Notes: generated by a model not told the origin, from the sequence alone. 11,435 nt of DNA from Myxococcales bacterium (GCA_037441385.1 JBBISH010000162.1:1-11435), one strand, 5' to 3'; positions 2,106-11,435 are shown, counted from the first letter of the stretch. Numbers and translations are program-made.

Positions 2106-4940
2106 ATGCGAACCACCAGAACGAAGGCGAACTTGGCCAACTGCGTCGCCCGCGCCGCGCTGGGGCTGCTTGCGGCCGGCGTGTGCGGTTGCGAAGGCTA
2201 CTTTGACCGCGTTGCCGAGGACGCGGGCAGCAGCGACGCCGCCCCGACGATCGCCAGCTACTACGCGGGCGCGGGCATCGGCGGGTCCTGCAAAGCCGTT
2301 GCCGATTGCCGCCAGGGTTTGGTCTGCGACACCGGCACCTGCCAGGCCAAAGGCACCACGGCCGAAAACGGCAAATGCTTGCTCAGCGCCGAGTGCGCGG
2401 GCGGCTTGCACTGCAGCTGGGCCGGTTTTTGCACGCCCCAGCCCGCCGGCGCAACAGTGCTGGCCGGCCCCTGCGAGAAGACGGAAGAGTGCGGCAAGGG
2501 CCTGTACTGCAAGCAACTCCCCACGTCGTCGTGCACGGCCGGCGCGTCGCGGTGCGGCGTGTGCACCCAACCGGACGCGAGCAACGTGCCCGTGGAAGGC
2601 GAAGAGTGCGCCGCCAGCAGCCAGTGCCCACCCAAGATGGTGTGTGCGATGATCGGCATGTCGGGCACATGCAAGTGGTCGAACACCAAGGGCGCCGACT
2701 TGGGCGGCACCTGCGCCGCCACCAGCGATTGCCTGGCCGGGCTCACCTGCAGTGCCGCGCGCAAGCAATGCGTACCAGGCAGCGTTCTGCTGAACCCCGA
2801 CCTCTACGGCGGCGTGGAATGCCCCGACGACATGGACGACGCCCTGCCCTTTGGCGCCCTGCTCGACGTGCCCAAAACTGGCGTCAAGCAAGACTTTTAC
2901 CGGATGCCGTTCCCGAGCGACGTCTACCGCACGGCCACCGGGCTGGACCTGAGCGCCCACCCCAGCCCAGGCTTGGGCCTGCTCGGGTTCGACACCGTCC
3001 GGCGCGTGATCGAGTCGATGGGGAGCGACATGACCGGCTGGGGCCAAACCACCGGCACCTACATGCGTTTCACCCGCGCCCTGGACCCAGTGACCGTGAC
3101 CATCCCAGGCGGGAGTGTGCCCAAGGATCAGGCGACCGTGCGGTTCGTCAACCTGAAGACCGGCGCCGATGTGCCCCTTGCCTCCGCCAGTGTGGCGGCC
3201 AAGTCTGCACGAAACAAGTACATTTGCCGCGATTGGCTGTACGTGCACGCGCGCTGGGATCAGGTGCTCGAGCCCGACACGGCCTATGCAGTGGTCGTGA
3301 CCAATGGCGTGCGGCAGAGCTGCGGCGATGGCGTGTGCCTGGCCGGCACCGACGACTTCTTGAACTGCCCGGCCGATTGCACGCTCGAGAACAAGAACAC
3401 GGGCAAGGCCGGGGAACGCAAGGCGCCCGAGGCCGGTCGCGATCTGCCGGCCCTGCTGGCCGACGCCAAGCCGGGCGACCCGCTGCTGCTCAATGCGTGG
3501 ACCGCGTACACGCCCCTGCGAGCCTGGCTCAAGGCCAACCCGGCCGTCAAACCCGTGTCAGCAACCGTGTTTACCACGCAGGATAGTCGCAAGGTCATGC
3601 AGCAACTGGTGGCCGCAGCCCAGGCGGCCGGTCCGATCCAGCTGGCTGGACCGCCGCAGCTGTGCAAGACCGGCGTGGTCTCGCAGTGCGCCACCGCCAA
3701 CTGGAAGGACACGGCGGCGGGCAAGGCCGGCTCGCCCGACCCGCGCGACTGCCCGGCCGGCGCCGAGAACCTGCCCTACTACGAAATTCACGCGCGGCTG
3801 CGCTTGCCGATTTACCAAGATGGGTCGCGGCCTTACCTGACCTACGGTGCCCCCGGCGAAAAAGTTCGCCCGGGCGCTCTGCACATCCAAGCCGGCCAAC
3901 CGGCGCTGGTGAGCTACGAAAACGTTTGCATGGCGCTGACGATCCCCAAGAATGGCGCCAAGCCGGCCGGCGGCTGGCCGCTCGTGATGTTCGGCCATGG
4001 CACCGGCGGTAGCTTCCGCTCGGCTGCGACCGGTCTTGGCGCGGGACTGGCCGCCATCAAGGTCGCGAGCTTGGGCATCGACCAGCCCATGCACGCCAAC
4101 CGCCGCGGCGATCCCGACAAGCAGGCGCCCGACACCGACCCTGGGCCGCTGTTCTACAACTTTGCAAACCCGCCGGCCGCGCGCGGCAATTTCTGGCAAG
4201 GTGGCGCAGACAACTATGCGCTGGCGCGCTGGGCCAAAGAGTACCAGGGCGAGCAAACGCCGGCCGGCGTGCCCAGCGTCACGTTCGATGCGGGGCACCT
4301 CATCCTGATGGGGCACTCGCAGGGCTCGACCACCGGGCCTTTGGCGCTGCCCTACATGGCCGGCCTGCGCGGCGCGGTTCTGTCGGGTTGCGGCGGGTCG
4401 CTGGTCTACGGCTTGCTGGGCAAGCAGAAGCCCTACGATGCCTCGGTGGGTCTGAAGCTGGGCCTGCAGGACTTGGGCGTCGATCCGTACCATCCCGTAC
4501 TGAACTTGTTCCAGAATTACTTTGAGGTGTCCGACCCGCTGCTCTACGCCCCGTTGCTGACCGCCAAGGCGCCGCTCGCGCCGCTGCATGTGCTACAAAC
4601 CTATGGCATGAACGACAGTTACACGCCGCCCACCACCAGCCGCATCTTTGCCGCCGCGGCCGGCCTGACCGTGGGCGTGCCCAACCCGCTGCCGACTTGG
4701 TTCGACTTGGTCCAAGACTTGGGTGCCACCAGCGCCGCGCTGCCCATCGCCAACAACGTGAACGTGGGCGGCAAGACCTACACCGCCGCCGTGGTCGAGG
4801 CCATGAACGATCCCAACAACACGGCCACCAAGAAGACCTACGACGGCCACTTTGTCGCATTCAACGACCTGAAGTTGATCGCCCAGGTGCAGGGCTTCTT
4901 GGCCAGCCTGGTGAGCGGAACGCCCACGGTTGCCAAGTAA
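2106..4940 (+). CDS. Cys-rich repeat lipoprotein with C-terminal alpha/beta-hydrolase (lipase/esterase-like)
   Basis: GAGGT RBS at 2097-2101 and lipobox-like GVCG|C (Cys29). Five C-x5-C-x5-C-xn-C repeats, then a PFPSD motif and an Ig-like segment (LEPDTAYAVVVT). Hydrolase motifs: WPLVMFGHGTGG, nucleophile elbow GHSQG (Ser738, codon 4317-4319), candidate Asp837 (GMNDSYTP) and His915 (YDGHF). Confidence 0.88.
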   Translation: MRTTRTKANLANCVARAALGLLAAGVCGCEGYFDRVAEDAGSSDAAPTIASYYAGAGIGGSCKAVADCRQGLVCDTGTCQAKGTTAENGKCLLSAECAGGLHCSWAGFCTPQPAGATVLAGPCEKTEECGKGLYCKQLPTSSCTAGASRCGVCTQPDASNVPVEGEECAASSQCPPKMVCAMIGMSGTCKWSNTKGADLGGTCAATSDCLAGLTCSAARKQCVPGSVLLNPDLYGGVECPDDMDDALPFGALLDVPKTGVKQDFYRMPFPSDVYRTATGLDLSAHPSPGLGLLGFDTVRRVIESMGSDMTGWGQTTGTYMRFTRALDPVTVTIPGGSVPKDQATVRFVNLKTGADVPLASASVAAKSARNKYICRDWLYVHARWDQVLEPDTAYAVVVTNGVRQSCGDGVCLAGTDDFLNCPADCTLENKNTGKAGERKAPEAGRDLPALLADAKPGDPLLLNAWTAYTPLRAWLKANPAVKPVSATVFTTQDSRKVMQQLVAAAQAAGPIQLAGPPQLCKTGVVSQCATANWKDTAAGKAGSPDPRDCPAGAENLPYYEIHARLRLPIYQDGSRPYLTYGAPGEKVRPGALHIQAGQPALVSYENVCMALTIPKNGAKPAGGWPLVMFGHGTGGSFRSAATGLGAGLAAIKVASLGIDQPMHANRRGDPDKQAPDTDPGPLFYNFANPPAARGNFWQGGADNYALARWAKEYQGEQTPAGVPSVTFDAGHLILMGHSQGSTTGPLALPYMAGLRGAVLSGCGGSLVYGLLGKQKPYDASVGLKLGLQDLGVDPYHPVLNLFQNYFEVSDPLLYAPLLTAKAPLAPLHVLQTYGMNDSYTPPTTSRIFAAAAGLTVGVPNPLPTWFDLVQDLGATSAALPIANNVNVGGKTYTAAVVEAMNDPNNTATKKTYDGHFVAFNDLKLIAQVQGFLASLVSGTPTVAK
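2289..2771 (+). repeat. Five protein-level Cys-rich repeats within the hydrolase lipoprotein
   Basis: CKAVADCRQGLVCDTGTC; CLLSAECAGGLHCSWAGFC; CEKTEECGKGLYC...C; CAASSQCPPKMVCAMIGMSGTC; CAATSDCLAGLTCSAARKQC. Confidence 0.85.
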
Positions 4941-5011
4941 AGTTCCGCAAAATCAACGACAAAAAAGTAACCCGCCAGCCGAGCAGAATCCACCATCGAA
5001 ATTCGCGCCGG

Positions 5012-5184
5012 CCGTCGATTTGGGATGCAAATCAAGGCGCAAGGAGCGGAGCGAGTGAGGCGACCCAGAGGTCGCCGCAGGGAGAAGGGCCCCAGCGGTC
5101 GCCCGAAGGGTGAACGGGTCGCCCCAGTGGGGCAACCCGTAGCTGGGACGACGCAGCAACGCCGAGTTGCGCCCAAAGCGGCGG
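5012..5184. repeat. Palindromic multi-hairpin intergenic element (REP/MITE-like or structured RNA)
   Basis: Imperfect terminal inverted repeat 5012-5033 / 5164-5184. Internal stems: 5059-5065/5070-5076, 5091-5096/5142-5147, 5099-5104/5108-5113 and 5114-5125/5129-5140. Confidence 0.7.
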
Positions 5185-5204
5185 ATCGGGGCCGAGCAGC
5201 CACG

Positions 5205-5233
5205 TTTCCAAGTTGGCTGTGCTCGCGTAGAAT
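5205..5233 (+). promoter_or_regulatory. Putative sigma70-type promoter for the transporter gene
   Basis: TTTCCA at 5205-5210 (4/6 match to TTGACA), a 17-bp spacer, and TAGAAT at 5228-5233 (5/6 match to TATAAT), directly upstream of the CDS. Confidence 0.5.
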
Positions 5234-5296
5234 CGTGGGTTGGCGCAGGTGCACCTGGGGCTGGGGCCTCGGTCGAGCCACCGCGCAGGCGAGTCG

Positions 5297-8200
5297 ATGT
5301 CGCAGGCGGCCAGCGCAACTTCCAGCCAATCCGTACCCGCGCTGCGTTCGTCGCGCAGCGTGATGGACTGGCTGTTTCACCAAGTCTTTTCGCTGCGGCG
5401 CATCGACTTGCCGGTACTCTGGCTGCTGGGGCCGCTGTTTGGCGTGGTCACCGCCGCCAGCGTCATCATTGCCACCTTTACCAAGACCGCGTTCTTGGTC
5501 GAATACGACGTGGGCGCGCTGCCCATCATGTTCTTGGCAAGCTCGGTGTTTACGGCCGTCATCTCGATGGCCTACGTTGGGGCTGTCGAGCGCGTGAGCC
5601 TGGCGCCGCGCTTTGTGGGCTTGGTGGGCGTGGCCTTGGTGTCGTTTGGTCTGCTTCACGCGCTATACCCGCTACAGCCCAAGGCCGTGGCGCTGGCGCA
5701 GCTGGTGTGGGGCACGGGCCTTTCGCAACTGATGCTGGTGCAGAGCTGGAACATGTCGTCGTCGCTGCTGCCCTCGCGGCAGGGCAAGCGGCTCTTCCCC
5801 GTTTTTGCTGCCCTTTCTACGTTGGGCGCGGCGGCTGGCGGCGGGCTGGTCAGTTTGGGCCTCAAGGTCGTCGAGGCGCGGCAGTTGATCTGGCTGGTGC
5901 TGCTGCTGCTCATCTACCCGCTGCTGCGCGTGCGGCCGATCATCCGCCAACTGCAGTGGAATTTGGACGCGCACTCCAGCAACGAGGTCGCACCCGCGTT
6001 GGCGGCACCAGAGACCGCGTCGAGCGGCGCCCAGCGCCAAGTCATGGAAGAAATTCTACGTGGTTTCAAGGGTATCGCCTCTTCGCCGCTGCTGCTACGT
6101 CTGGCGAGTCTGGTGTTCTTGCTGCAGACTGCGTCGCTGATCATCGACTTCCAATTCTCAACCGAGCTCAAGCTCCACTACAGCCGCAACGAGATGGCCG
6201 GCTTCTTGGGCACCTACTACGCCATCGCCAACACGGTCGCTTTTTTTGTCGCGTTGATGGCCACTTCGCGCATCGTGCGCCTGGTCGGCATCGGCGTCGC
6301 CATCTCGGCCAGCGCCATCTTTGTGGGCGCCGGCAGCGCTTGGTACTTTGGCGCGGCGCGCTTGGGCTTGGGCAGTCCGTTTTGGGCCGTGGTGGCCACC
6401 TCGTTCCTCGAACGCATTTTCCAATTCGCCTTGACGCGCAACGCCATGCAGATGCTGGTCGCGCCCCTGGACAGCAAGAAGGGCGAGCGCGCCAAGACGT
6501 TGATCGACGGCGTGGTCTATCGCGTGGCCACCGCCGGCACGTCGCTGCTGCTGCTGTTCTTCCGGCCCACCAGCGAGAAGTTGGCCCTGCTGGCGCCCGT
6601 CACCATCGTCGCCTGCATCGGGGTGGTGCTGGTGGGCTTGTCGATGAACCCTTGGTATCGCAAGGCGCTTTTTGAGGGGCTGCGCGCGCGCCGGGTCGAT
6701 TCGGATGTGGATGCGCAGACGCGAGCCTTGCTGCTGCGCTCGGCGATGGGCGAAGTGCGCGAGCGGCTGGCGTCCAAAGAAGTGCGCGATATTCGGGCGG
6801 CGCTGGACATCATCCGCGACTCCAAACTGCCCGTCGAGGTTGCGGATCTGCTGCCCGCCGCCAAGCACACGGACCCCGATGTCGCCCGCCGGGCGCTGGA
6901 GCTGATGAACGAGGTGGGCCTGCTGCCCAGCGAAAGCGCTCTGCTGGACCTGCTGCAGCGCGACCGGCCGCCCGCGGTGCTGCGCGAAGTCCTGCGCTTG
7001 CTGCAGAACTACCCAAACGCCAAGCACATTGGTCCCGTCAGCCACATGGTGGACCACCCCGACTTGGGCGTGGCGCGGCTGGCCACGATGTGGCTGCACA
7101 AGACGGGCGGCAGCAGCATCGCCGAGCAACTGCAAGACCAATTGCGCGCCGACATGCAGAGTCCGGTGGCCGAGCAACGCGCCCGCGCGGCGTACATCTC
7201 GGGCATGTACCGGCAAGAGCCGCAAGAAGGTTTGGTGCAGCTGCTGCACGACGCTTCGCCCGAAGTGCGCCTCAATGCCGTGGTGTCGATGGGGCAAATT
7301 GGCGCCCCCGAATTCATCGATCCGCTTATCGATTGCCTGGGCCGCGGCGACCTGGTCACGGCGGCGCAGGCGGCCCTGGCGCGCTATGGCCCAACCCTGG
7401 TCGCCCACGTGCGCGTGCGGGTGCAGCAGCGGCCGCCGGGCCTGGCCATCCAGCTGCGCTTGCTCCGGGTGGTCGAGCACTTTGGCAACGAGGCGGCGGT
7501 CAAGTTCCTGATGGAACAGGCCGAGTCTCAGGCCTCGGTCGTGCGCAACAACGCCGTGCAAAGCCTGTGGCGCTTGGCCCGCGATCCAGAGGCTCCAAGG
7601 CCGCCCAGTGCCTGGCTGCGCGCGCGGGTCCTCAGCGAGATCGAAGCCTTGCAGTTGCTGCAGCGGGTCGACCTGCGGACACGTGGGGATTCGGCGCCGC
7701 TCAAGTTCTTTGCCGCCGAGCTGGCCGCCCTGCGCCTGCAGAGCGAGATGCGCGGTTTCCGGCTGCTGGGCCTGCTGGGGGCGCGCGCGCCGCTGCACCG
7801 CGCCTATCTGCACTACCGCAGCGAGCATCAACGGGTGCGGTCCAACGCCATCGAACTGTTGGATCAGCACCTGGGCGACGAGGAATTGAAGCCCTTTGTC
7901 GCCCTGGTCGAGCGGATCGAACCGGCGGCGAGCAACGACGGCGATCTGGGCGACGGCAACGTGGTGATCAACCTGCTCAGCGGCGCGGACCCGTGGCTGG
8001 GCCGGGTGTGGGCGTGGACGCAGGCGCCGCAAGGAGGCAGGATGACACGCGATCCCATGGACTTGGTGTTCCTGCTCAAGGGCGTGCCGCTGCTCAGCGA
8101 CCTGTCGGGCGAACAGCTGCTGCCGGTGGCCGAGATTGTCCAGCACGTGCACGTAGAAGGCGGCGACCTGGTCTTTGCCGAGGGGCAGCCGGGCAACCAC

Positions 8201-8458
8201 CTGTATGTGATTCTGGAAGGCAACATCGACATCATGAAGGGCAAAGAGCACCTGGCCACCCTGGGCACCAAAGAGTGTTTTGGCGAGATGGCCTTGCTGG
8301 ATCAGGCCCCGCGCATGGCCAGCGCCCGCGCCCACACCGATGCGGATCTGCTCGCGATTTCGCGCGACGACTTCCAAGACTTGCTGGACATGCACCCGGC
8401 GCTGGCCCGCGGCATCATCCGCGTGCTGACCCAGCGACTCCGCGGCGCCCAGGACTGA
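5297..8458 (+). CDS. Npt1/Npt2 (TLC ATP/ADP translocase-like) MFS transporter fused to HEAT repeats and a cyclic-nucleotide-binding domain
   Basis: About 12 hydrophobic helices up to ~6650, with family-typical motifs (RQGKRLFPVF, IIDFQF, RAKTLIDGVVYR). HEAT-like repeats follow (LLHDASPEVRLNAVVSMG, VRSNAIELLD). The C-terminal cNMP domain has FAEGQPGNHLYVILEG and FGEMALLDQAPRMASA. Start is uncertain: ATG 5297 is preferred, but the frame is open from TTG 5240. Confidence 0.88.
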   Translation: MSQAASATSSQSVPALRSSRSVMDWLFHQVFSLRRIDLPVLWLLGPLFGVVTAASVIIATFTKTAFLVEYDVGALPIMFLASSVFTAVISMAYVGAVERVSLAPRFVGLVGVALVSFGLLHALYPLQPKAVALAQLVWGTGLSQLMLVQSWNMSSSLLPSRQGKRLFPVFAALSTLGAAAGGGLVSLGLKVVEARQLIWLVLLLLIYPLLRVRPIIRQLQWNLDAHSSNEVAPALAAPETASSGAQRQVMEEILRGFKGIASSPLLLRLASLVFLLQTASLIIDFQFSTELKLHYSRNEMAGFLGTYYAIANTVAFFVALMATSRIVRLVGIGVAISASAIFVGAGSAWYFGAARLGLGSPFWAVVATSFLERIFQFALTRNAMQMLVAPLDSKKGERAKTLIDGVVYRVATAGTSLLLLFFRPTSEKLALLAPVTIVACIGVVLVGLSMNPWYRKALFEGLRARRVDSDVDAQTRALLLRSAMGEVRERLASKEVRDIRAALDIIRDSKLPVEVADLLPAAKHTDPDVARRALELMNEVGLLPSESALLDLLQRDRPPAVLREVLRLLQNYPNAKHIGPVSHMVDHPDLGVARLATMWLHKTGGSSIAEQLQDQLRADMQSPVAEQRARAAYISGMYRQEPQEGLVQLLHDASPEVRLNAVVSMGQIGAPEFIDPLIDCLGRGDLVTAAQAALARYGPTLVAHVRVRVQQRPPGLAIQLRLLRVVEHFGNEAAVKFLMEQAESQASVVRNNAVQSLWRLARDPEAPRPPSAWLRARVLSEIEALQLLQRVDLRTRGDSAPLKFFAAELAALRLQSEMRGFRLLGLLGARAPLHRAYLHYRSEHQRVRSNAIELLDQHLGDEELKPFVALVERIEPAASNDGDLGDGNVVINLLSGADPWLGRVWAWTQAPQGGRMTRDPMDLVFLLKGVPLLSDLSGEQLLPVAEIVQHVHVEGGDLVFAEGQPGNHLYVILEGNIDIMKGKEHLATLGTKECFGEMALLDQAPRMASARAHTDADLLAISRDDFQDLLDMHPALARGIIRVLTQRLRGAQD

Positions 8459-8473
8459 TCGGCGCAAACCGCG

Positions 8474-9463
8474 ATGGCGGCCTACCGCAAGGACACGGGA
8501 CACAAGTTGACAGATAATAAGTTGACAAACATCAAGTCACAGCCCAAGACGGCAGCCAAGGCGCGCCAGAGCGTCCCGGCCTCGCAGGTGCGCACGGCGC
8601 TGCTGCCGGATCAGTCGCCGGCGCTGTTGCAGGCGCTGCACCTGTTGACCCGCACGGGCGACCTCAACGCAGACGCCTTGCGCAAACTCAAGCAAATCAA
8701 CCACCTGTACGGTCTACTCCGGCCGCTGCTCGAACCGCTGTGGATCAGCGACGACGGGCAGCCCAGCGGGGCGCCGCTCGTGGTCGACGCGGGCGCGGGC
8801 AACAGCTACTTGGGTTTTGTGTTGTACGAGCTGCTTTGGGGCCCGCTGGGGCGCGGCGAGCTGTGGGGGGTCGAGACGCGCGCCGACTTGGTCGAGCGGG
8901 TGCGACAGCGGGCGCAAGAGCTTGGTTTTGCACGCATGTTCATGGCCCAGTCCAGCGTGGCGGGGATCGGCGAGGTGCCCGAGCTGGCTGGTCGCAAGGT
9001 CGACGCAGTGGTGGCCCTGCATGCCTGCGACACCGCCACCGACGAGGCGCTTTTGCTGGGCCTCGCCCAAAAATCGGCCGTGATTGCCGTGGTTCCGTGC
9101 TGCCAGGCCGAGCTGTCGCGGCTGCTCAGTGGCGGCAGCGCCGTCCGCACTGCTTTGGGCCCGCTGTGGCGCCACCCGATGCACCGCCGCGAGTTCGGCG
9201 CCCACCTCACCAACGTCGTGCGCGGCCTGGTGCTAGAGGCGCACGGGTACCAAGTGACCGTCACCGAGCTGACCGGCTGGGAGCACTCGCTCAAAAACGA
9301 GGTGCTGCTGGCACGGCGCGTGCAAGGGCGCAACCCCTTGGCGCTACGGCAACTCTATCAACTCCTGGCCCAGCTGCCGCCCTTGCCGATGCACCTCTTG
9401 ACCGAGCTGGGCCTGGTCGACGCCGACGGCAACCCTACCCCCAAGACCGAGGTACAGTCCTGA
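8474..9463 (+). CDS. Class I SAM-dependent methyltransferase (Methyltransf_32-like)
   Basis: Motif I VVDAGAGNSYLG, post-I WGVE, and the family motifs ALHACDTATD, VVPCC and EHSLKN. Start is uncertain (alternative TTGs at 8507 and 8522). Confidence 0.88.
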   Translation: MAAYRKDTGHKLTDNKLTNIKSQPKTAAKARQSVPASQVRTALLPDQSPALLQALHLLTRTGDLNADALRKLKQINHLYGLLRPLLEPLWISDDGQPSGAPLVVDAGAGNSYLGFVLYELLWGPLGRGELWGVETRADLVERVRQRAQELGFARMFMAQSSVAGIGEVPELAGRKVDAVVALHACDTATDEALLLGLAQKSAVIAVVPCCQAELSRLLSGGSAVRTALGPLWRHPMHRREFGAHLTNVVRGLVLEAHGYQVTVTELTGWEHSLKNEVLLARRVQGRNPLALRQLYQLLAQLPPLPMHLLTELGLVDADGNPTPKTEVQS

Positions 9464-11104: not shown

Positions 11105-11435
11105 TCCGCAAACTCCTGCCCTTCCTTGCTATCGCCGGCCTTGCGCTGCCCAGCGCGGCCCACGCCAAGACCGTGGTCTGCCCAGGCCCCGACACCCTGC
11201 CCGGCATCGACGTGTCGTACTGGCAAGGCAACATCGATTGGGCCAAGGTCAAGGCGTCGGGCAAGAAGTACGTCATCATGCGGGCGGCCCACGCGCTGTC
11301 GGTGGATACGAAATTCGATTTCAATTGGTCGCAGTGCCACGCCCAGGGTCTGCATTGCGGCGTGTACCAGTTCTTTGAGCCGGATATCGACCCCATCAAG
11401 CAGGCCGACCTGATGCTGTCCAAGATGGGCAAGCT
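11101..11435 (+). CDS. Secreted glycoside hydrolase family 25 (lysozyme/muramidase), 3'-truncated
   Basis: GGGAGG RBS at 11089-11094 and an ATGA overlap. Manual translation: MIRKLLPFLAIAGLALPSAAHA|KTVVCPGPDTLPGIDVSYWQGNIDWAKVKASGKKYVIMRAAHALSVDTKFDFNWSQCHAQGLHCGVYQFFEP... The segments GIDVSxWQG.IDW, D..F..NW and GxYxF are GH25 signatures. Confidence 0.92.
   Translation, partial: MIRKLLPFLAIAGLALPSAAHAKTVVCPGPDTLPGIDVSYWQGNIDWAKVKASGKKYVIMRAAHALSVDTKFDFNWSQCHAQGLHCGVYQFFEPDIDPIKQADLMLSKMGK

Follow-up and report, generated by a model that had tools for sequence, protein, structure and literature searches.

In the Methanothermobacter K+ channel MthK, an internal start at Met107 yields free RCK domains, which co-assemble with the tethered ones (Jiang et al. 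2002, as cited in PMC9440719 and PMC2920069). In Escherichia coli, an in-frame start led by a Shine-Dalgarno (SD) sequence marks the boundary at which the last domain of the membrane kinase ArcB begins and is conserved among species; according to the preprint that describes it, the product, ArcB-C, was confirmed by Ribo-RET (retapamulin-assisted ribosome profiling) and by Western blots of mutants in the SD and the start (Meydan et al., bioRxiv 10.1101/520783). The preprint text also presents rpnE, whose internal product shares 98% identity with a protein that has a gene of its own (rpnE/ypaA; bioRxiv 10.1101/520783). In the open-access literature, we found no paper on internal initiation in transporters bearing a cyclic nucleotide-binding (CNB) domain or on the family of TLC/MFS-HEAT-CNB proteins studied here. 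The stretch of DNA in question (the window, 11,435 nucleotides) is the whole of an 11.4-kb contig (C162) from a Myxococcales bacterium metagenome-assembled genome (MAG) of 6.6 Mb and 66.9% GC (GCA_037441385.1). It carries a gene for a TLC/MFS-like transporter with HEAT repeats and a C-terminal CNB domain (5297..8458, + strand), and within this gene a strong SD precedes an in-frame ATG at the HEAT/CNB boundary. The comparison of homologues suggests that the gene is a fusion in which the ribosome-binding site and start codon of the CNB part were probably kept by selection, giving both a tethered and a free CNB, and the ATG at 8042 is, in our judgement, likely to be a functional start.

An earlier note on this DNA had claimed a perfect SD four nucleotides (nt) before an in-frame ATG where the HEAT domain gives way to the CNB domain, stronger than the SDs at the other gene starts and before the full-length start, and set in codons that break the G/C-ending bias of the gene; each of these claims held. 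The SD, AAGGAGG, occupies 8031..8037 (+) and is followed by the spacer CAGG and by the ATG at 8042..8044 (+), which is in frame with the open frame that begins at TTG 5240, (8042-5240)/3 being 934, and encodes Met935 of that frame. Its duplex energy, calculated with ViennaRNA duplexfold and the 10-nt tail of the genome's own 16S 3′ end, is -11.2 kcal/mol, compared with -1.7 to -7.1 kcal/mol at the gene starts of the window (-7.1 at 2106, -1.7 at 8474 and -2.9 at 11355(-)); the candidate starts of the full-length gene reach -3.7 (ATG 5297), -4.3 (GTG 5249) and -1.3 (TTG 5240). The codons CAA, GGA and ACA at the site end in A, in a gene with a GC content at third codon positions of 0.853, and the GGA upstream of the nested start is the only one among the gene's 76 glycine codons. 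Among the 107 in-frame start-capable codons of the gene, the one at 8042 has the best SD (rank 0). The gene contains a single GGAGG, and a count over both strands of the whole window gives a single AAGGAGG; these are occurrence counts only, the comparison of sense and antisense SD motifs in coding DNA being no valid control for depletion.

The nested open reading frame (ORF; 8042..8458, +, with the stop TGA at 8456-8458) is predicted to encode a free CNB protein of 138 amino acids (aa), which matches Pfam cNMP_binding (PF00027) at residues 36-116 (E=7.3e-22) with 77.6 bits, above the gathering cutoff of 27.5. In an AlphaFold2 model of residues 555-1072 (34 aligned sequences; mean predicted local distance difference test score, pLDDT, 86.7), Met935 is model residue 381 and lies in a 10-residue coil (375-384) without secondary structure, in a block with a pLDDT of 74-79, with the final helix of the HEAT domain (364-374) before it and the first helix of the CNB domain (385-393) after it. 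This coil, which corresponds to 8024..8053 (+), is the linker of the two domains and contains both the SD and the nested start. A scan of 7600-8600 found no sigma-70-like promoter upstream of 8042, which neither supports nor excludes an internal promoter.

The 3′ end of the genome's 16S rRNA is canonical (...GGATCACCTCCTTT; canonical end CCUCCUUU), and 294 of 2,772 ORFs (10.6%) have GGAGG close to their start region, versus 28 of 2,233 internal control blocks (1.25%), with AAGGAGG found 17 times near gene starts and once in the control blocks. Judging from these motif counts, SD-led initiation is used by the organism. In a set of 2,884 confident ORFs, holding about 1.04 million internal codons, AAGGAGG precedes an internal in-frame ATG by 3-10 nt in only three of 17,591 cases, the site in the window included, and GGAGG precedes such an ATG in 36 (0.2%). 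A lone site could arise by chance when many windows are scanned, and the weight was therefore placed on conservation.

The gene is a single open frame in 31 of the 36 other genomes of the family, which is the only family of its order. Every one of the 24 genomes with a completeness of at least 90%, the window's own included, has it, as do 11 more distant genomes of the class; the source labels of close protein relatives are Deltaproteobacteria or Myxococcales bacterium MAGs. Orthologous genes were extracted with tblastn-guided frames and aligned, and the codons at the boundary were read. The boundary codon is ATG in 15 of the 31 family orthologues, GTG in nine and TTG in four, and the aligned column thus holds one of these three codons in 28 of 31. 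The other three have a GTG within three codons, two of them with GTA at the boundary and GTG 1-3 codons upstream, and the third with its GTG one codon off the aligned column. The SD duplex of the best boundary start reaches -7 or lower in 30 of the 31 orthologues and -8.5 or lower in 23, compared with 7.8% and 4.4%, respectively, of 2,930 random 14-codon windows taken from 53 fused genes. By SD strength, the boundary start comes at rank 0-2 of the roughly 100 in-frame start-capable codons in most of the genes. In a test of 1,270 alignment columns in 22 orthologues, the boundary column was start-capable in 20 and had a start together with a four-letter SD core in 17, with nine for the runner-up column. 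The earlier note had proposed to test homologues for a conserved GGAG and ATG at this boundary, and they do keep a start-capable codon and a GGAG-type motif beyond what the amino acids require. As for the internal translation initiation site of arcB, an in-frame start at a domain boundary, an SD of -8.5 or lower within 15 nt and preservation across species are all found here, the cut-off of -8.5 having been set with RNAhybrid and not being strictly comparable to our ViennaRNA values.

The linker residues vary by lineage (QGGR, EGKR, RGGK, SGGK, GGKR, KGDK, EGGV, QEAK and others), and the rare codon GGA, which makes up 1.3-8.6% of glycine codons gene-wide, occurs within six codons upstream of the start in 14 of 22 orthologues. 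Where the start column encodes leucine, the codon is TTG in four of four cases and never CTN, TTG amounting to 10-16% of leucine codons in the three of these genes for which usage was computed; where it encodes valine, the codon is GTG in nine of 11 cases and GTA in two, with no GTC or GTT. When the protein was held fixed and codons were drawn from each gene's own usage, an SD with a start was expected in 3.3 of 17 representatives and observed in 12, and in all 22 orthologues 3.9 were expected and 17 observed. Identity at fourfold-degenerate sites exceeds the codon-usage expectation (mean 0.42) by at most 10 points in most pairs, by 11-13 in some and by 17 in the closest pair, from which the synonymous sites of the family representatives appear to be near saturation and the independence assumed in the resampling to hold approximately. 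Around the site, the mRNA is predicted to fold less stably than the average for its gene in 25 of 26 representatives (mean z +1.0). These comparisons indicate a signal at the level of nucleotides, not of the protein, as expected from purifying selection with turnover of the motif, and neutral decay is disfavoured because the SD and the start persist despite near-saturated synonymous divergence. The use of rare codons such as GGA and TTG can thus flag hidden starts in high-GC genomes.

Among the more distant fused genes, the boundary reads GAAGGAGG-N4-ATG in L053 and in the metagenomic L093, GGAGGAGGG-N3-ATG in L054, AGGAGG-N6-TTG in L055 and GGAGG-N6-TTG in L050, and a weaker ATG site is present in L056 and L095. 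A metagenome scan, together with a genome scan with named records, revealed a related TLC/MFS-HEAT subfamily in which the two parts are mostly separate genes. The C-terminal end of the gene is included in 65 of 80 genome loci, and 42 of these have a separate CNB ORF just downstream, two are fused, 16 have no CNB within at least 600 nt and five leave no room for one. Hence, the split arrangement that the earlier note had suggested looking for exists, mostly in records from Myxococcaceae, Archangium, Myxococcus and Myxococcales MAGs, and also in Bdellovibrio, Acidobacteriota and others. The separate CNB proteins are typically 137-138 aa long and begin at the residue homologous to residue 1-2 or 6 of the nested product. 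At the 11 junctions that were inspected, the upstream stop and the CNB start share 4 nt in eight cases (ATGA, in one of them GTGA), 1 nt in one case and 17 nt in two, and a GGAGG-type SD is present at several. In three split examples, Pfam finds TLC and HEAT in the first ORF and cNMP_binding at residues 35-116 of the second; the TLC scores of the split relatives (47-78 bits) are above the 24.5 bits of the window's protein. One split CNB shares 45% identity with the nested product in an ungapped alignment of 138 aa against 138 aa, while the split transporter-HEAT part is only 22-27% identical to that of the window. A single-base change at an ATGA junction would yield the fused arrangement with an in-frame SD and ATG. 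Four further fused lineages belong to a subfamily that resembles the split type and have ATG at the boundary in all four cases and an SD-like motif in three (L148, -9.0; L152, -9.8; L223, -7.9), L175 being without an SD; the boundaries of L146, L148 and L152 were aligned by hand. On the metagenome contigs L110 and L131/L132, the CNB frame continues the TLC/MFS-HEAT frame right behind its stop, an arrangement that looks like an intermediate between split and fused.

We also looked at where free CNB genes occur beside fused ones. One clade of fused genes (the class-level families f2, f4 and f7 with related metagenome contigs) mostly has no boundary start or SD, and the same clade has an extra free CNB gene of 146-171 aa, directly downstream or behind an ORF of about 540 aa. 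Among the 53 unique fused loci, a nested start with an SD of -7 or lower is present in 37 of the 44 without a nearby free CNB gene and absent from seven, and it is present in two (L040 and L092) of the nine that have such a gene and absent from the other seven. A second CNB gene was found neither in the window nor in 18 family loci for which about 2-5 kb beyond the transporter gene could be examined. This complementary distribution is coherent with a nested start that would supply the free CNB, as far as the gene content of these loci goes, and is no independent proof of it. A tree of CNB domains from fused genes, free genes and paralogues leaves 21 of 41 inner branches open and does not settle the origin of the free copies. 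The ORF of about 540 aa (L038:5439-7058, and in L039, L040, L051, L052, L070-L073 and L076), which has a weak NACHT/P-loop match (E 6.8e-4), is located either between the genes for the transporter and the free CNB or in convergent orientation to the transporter gene.

The retained-start fusion could have arisen and could work as follows. In the ancestral state, a TLC/MFS-HEAT gene and a CNB gene of about 138 aa would have been adjacent and translationally coupled; the fusion would then have retained the ribosome-binding site and the start codon of the CNB gene, with selection maintaining both. Ribosomes that start near 5297 would make the membrane protein of 1053 aa with its tethered CNB, and 30S subunits that bind 8031-8037 on the full-length mRNA would start at the ATG at 8042 and make the soluble CNB of 138 aa. 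The tethered and free copies would cooperate or compete, with the strength of the SD setting their ratio, and the free copy might pair with the tethered CNB, compete for a docking site on the HEAT domain or buffer the cyclic nucleotide. We tentatively suggest, as an idea somewhat short of probable, that the transporter made from this gene is the target of the free CNB, which would be its cyclic nucleotide-sensing subunit, because the CNB must act in trans in the split systems and by analogy with MthK. By extension of the same analogy, the carrier might need two CNB modules, one tethered via HEAT and one free, paired as a cyclic nucleotide-gated switch that would be the MFS-type counterpart of the MthK gating ring, the free copy being supplied by a coupled downstream gene, an extra gene of the operon or a nested start whose SD strength sets the ratio; this more general scheme we regard as doubtful.

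Several points weigh against a selected nested start. The 14-codon search window gives each gene several chances of a match, which the background rates of 7.8% and 4.4% control for, and the thresholds, except for the -8.5 of Meydan et al., were set after the data had been seen. The tail probability of the codon resampling (Poisson-binomial, about 2e-8) assumes independent lineages and is inflated by shared ancestry, which amounts to 17 points for the pair L001/L010. The spacer of 4 nt is at the short end of the usual range, that of the orthologues being 4-8 nt. Two members of the close family are exceptions, L028 (TTG, -4.0) and L081 from a metagenome, which has the ATG and an SD of only -5.0. 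The loci with free CNB genes are one clade (support 99-100) and one neighbouring row, and the complementary pattern is therefore worth one or two evolutionary events, for which significance is out of reach (one or two contrasts in an independent-pairs comparison). In addition, L040 (G035:C16; -12.8) and L092 (-11.8) have a strong SD-like motif with GTG or ATG despite a free gene, so complementarity is not strict; either this motif is a chance product of acidic, GAG-rich codons or both routes operate. In the DNA examined, seven fused loci lack both a nested start and a free CNB gene, namely L028, L081 and the distant L057, L058, L090, L091 and L094, and the latter five imply that a free CNB is not universal.

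The earlier note had offered a fusion scar as its alternative, and this has to be divided into two claims. As history it stood, since the split forms with their ATGA overlaps provide the source of such a scar. As a neutral, unused remnant of a former CNB gene, in a gene from which only the full-length protein is made, we consider it distinctly unlikely. A fusion at an ATGA overlap leaves an SD and an ATG at the junction automatically, the independent fused forms of the other subfamily carry them as recent fusions would, and the SD is weak in the two close-family members named above; yet fourfold sites are near saturation while the SD and start are kept in 30 of 31 orthologues, and the motif has been rebuilt with other residues, other spacings, the rare GGA and TTG or GTG. 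Less probable still, and in our estimate very unlikely, is that no initiation takes place at all and that the purine-rich motif reflects a linker rich in Gly, Glu and Lys or an SD-like pause for the folding of the HEAT domain, with Met, Val or Leu as the first hydrophobic residue of the CNB helix. A linker of G, E and K can spell GGAG, M, V and L at the start column are chemically alike, and in several orthologues the amino acids alone give the four-letter SD core with a probability of 0.4-0.95. However, codon resampling predicts 3.3 of 17 where 12 are seen, GGA is used for only one of the 76 glycines in the window's gene, the leucines at the column are all TTG and the valines nine GTG and two GTA, and the separate CNB proteins begin at the homologous residue (1-2 or 6); moreover, a pause needs no start codon.

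A further explanation accepts that the free CNB is made and holds that it is independent of the transporter, being a cyclic nucleotide buffer or a regulator of other targets, as proposed for ArcB-C. The genome has at least 10 other ORFs with CNB domains, in line with broad cyclic nucleotide signalling, and the preprint on ArcB-C proposes that this diffusible protein reaches other partners (bioRxiv 10.1101/520783). The gene arrangement speaks for a connection with the transporter instead, as the split CNB gene adjoins the TLC/MFS-HEAT gene in 42 of 65 loci, with several 4-nt overlaps, and such tight linkage is typical of subunits in a fixed ratio; the extra CNB genes of the f2, f4 and f7 clade are likewise in the same operon-like cluster. 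We therefore regard an independent role as unlikely.

The full-length gene encodes 1053 aa from ATG 5297, within an open frame from TTG 5240, and has matches to Pfam TLC, HEAT_2, HEAT and cNMP_binding (PF00027, E 1.7e-20 in the full-length ORF). The database protein P0002 is also 1053 aa long and identical across the searched region (residues 560-1072). The exact N-terminal start remains uncertain because the SD before 5297 is weak (-3.7). The leader of the gene, about 350 nt (4941-5296), has no convincing SD at any candidate start, and translation of the full-length protein may begin at a weak, leaderless-like or regulated site, which would shift the ratio of the full-length to the nested product. 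The best TLC stretch of the membrane part lies at 5732..6619 (+; PF03219, residues 165-460 of the frame from 5240) and scores 24.5 bits, barely over the cutoff of 21, with 28.8 bits for NCBIfam TIGR00769, far under its cutoff of 387; by these profile matches, the membrane part is a distant relative of nucleotide transporters. The HEAT helical-repeat domain spans 6932..8023 (+), or AlphaFold2 helices 11-374 (residues 565-928), with E=6.9e-20 for Pfam HEAT_2. In the CNB domain, the phosphate-binding cassette FGEMALLDQAPRMASARA (8279..8332, +) has conserved residues in the 34 aligned sequences, G81 being invariant and E82, R91 and A93 nearly so; we take these to be the ribose- and phosphate-contacting residues of CNB domains. 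Profile matches of the CNB part in the PDB are the CNB domains of PKG, PKA-R, CRP and MloK1, fold matches are of the same kinds, and the fold compares to 4muv with a template modelling (TM) score of 0.80 over the target.

Directly upstream of the transporter gene, an ORF of 944 aa (2106-4940, +) has no Pfam match and a weak NCBIfam match to VolA/Pla-1 phospholipases. Its homologues (38-79% identity over the parts compared) have the same position in family and class-level relatives, and it may belong to the same functional unit as the transporter. A Methyltransf_32 gene (8474-9463, +) begins 16 nt past the transporter stop, a position kept in 12 of 18 family loci; in the other branch of the family, its place is taken by a convergent homologue of the ORF of about 540 aa. 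The sole sigma-70-like match in 7600-8600 is at 8490-8518 (+), just inside the start of the methyltransferase ORF, and if this promoter is real, the methyltransferase start could be downstream of 8474. With at least 10 other CNB-domain matches in the genome, cyclic nucleotide signalling seems extensive in the organism. On contig C34 of G000 (35061-36056, -), two adjacent frames of 195 and 268 aa each have a CNB that is 32-33% identical to that of the window.

To our knowledge, nested in-frame starts that free a C-terminal domain have come to light in a handful of bacterial and archaeal genes, most of them chance finds or results of ribosome profiling in E. coli; the present case was built from sequence alone, in an uncultured lineage of Myxococcota. 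It offers an unusually complete evolutionary series of split, coupled genes, of a fused gene with a retained start, and of a fused gene with an extra gene for the free domain. If true, it is also a warning for annotation that one gene may stand for two proteins. Finally, it provides a first functional handle on the widespread, uncharacterised TLC/MFS-HEAT-CNB family, which is apparently controlled by cyclic nucleotides.

Among known systems, several membrane transport proteins that are regulated by their CNB share its tethered, C-terminal position with the protein of the window, including MloK1, SthK, the HCN/CNG channels and SLC9C1, which are among the top matches of its CNB part; they differ in that no HEAT domain separates their membrane part from the CNB. 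We know of no report of a free CNB from a nested start for any of them. The ATP/ADP translocases (TLC, Npt1) resemble the membrane part through its weak Pfam TLC match, but these classical nucleotide transporters are without the HEAT and CNB modules. The split pairs of Myxococcaceae, Archangium, Bdellovibrio, Acidobacteriota and other MAGs have the same three modules in the same order, and the first Met of their free CNB falls within one residue of Met935; unlike the gene of the window, they are two genes, often with an ATGA overlap, and have no tethered CNB. With ArcB-C, as described in the preprint, the locus has in common an in-frame start codon led by an SD at the last domain of a membrane protein and an expected product of about 14-15 kDa, whereas the domain released is an HPt domain there and a CNB here, in another pathway. 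The likeness to rpnE/ypaA, as reported in the same text, is that the nested product matches a protein encoded independently in other genomes. There is a parallel in design to MthK, as it is portrayed in the papers that cite it, in that a membrane transport gene has a C-terminal ligand-binding regulatory domain that an in-frame internal start also yields as a separate protein, which is a prediction here. The two differ in the domain (RCK, which binds Ca2+, versus CNB) and in the membrane part (the pore of a tetrameric channel versus an MFS/TLC-type carrier with HEAT). Moreover, the MthK co-assembly has been solved structurally and the ArcB start has been confirmed by experiment, while the start at 8042 is so far read from the DNA, where it would add a putative free CNB to the tethered one.

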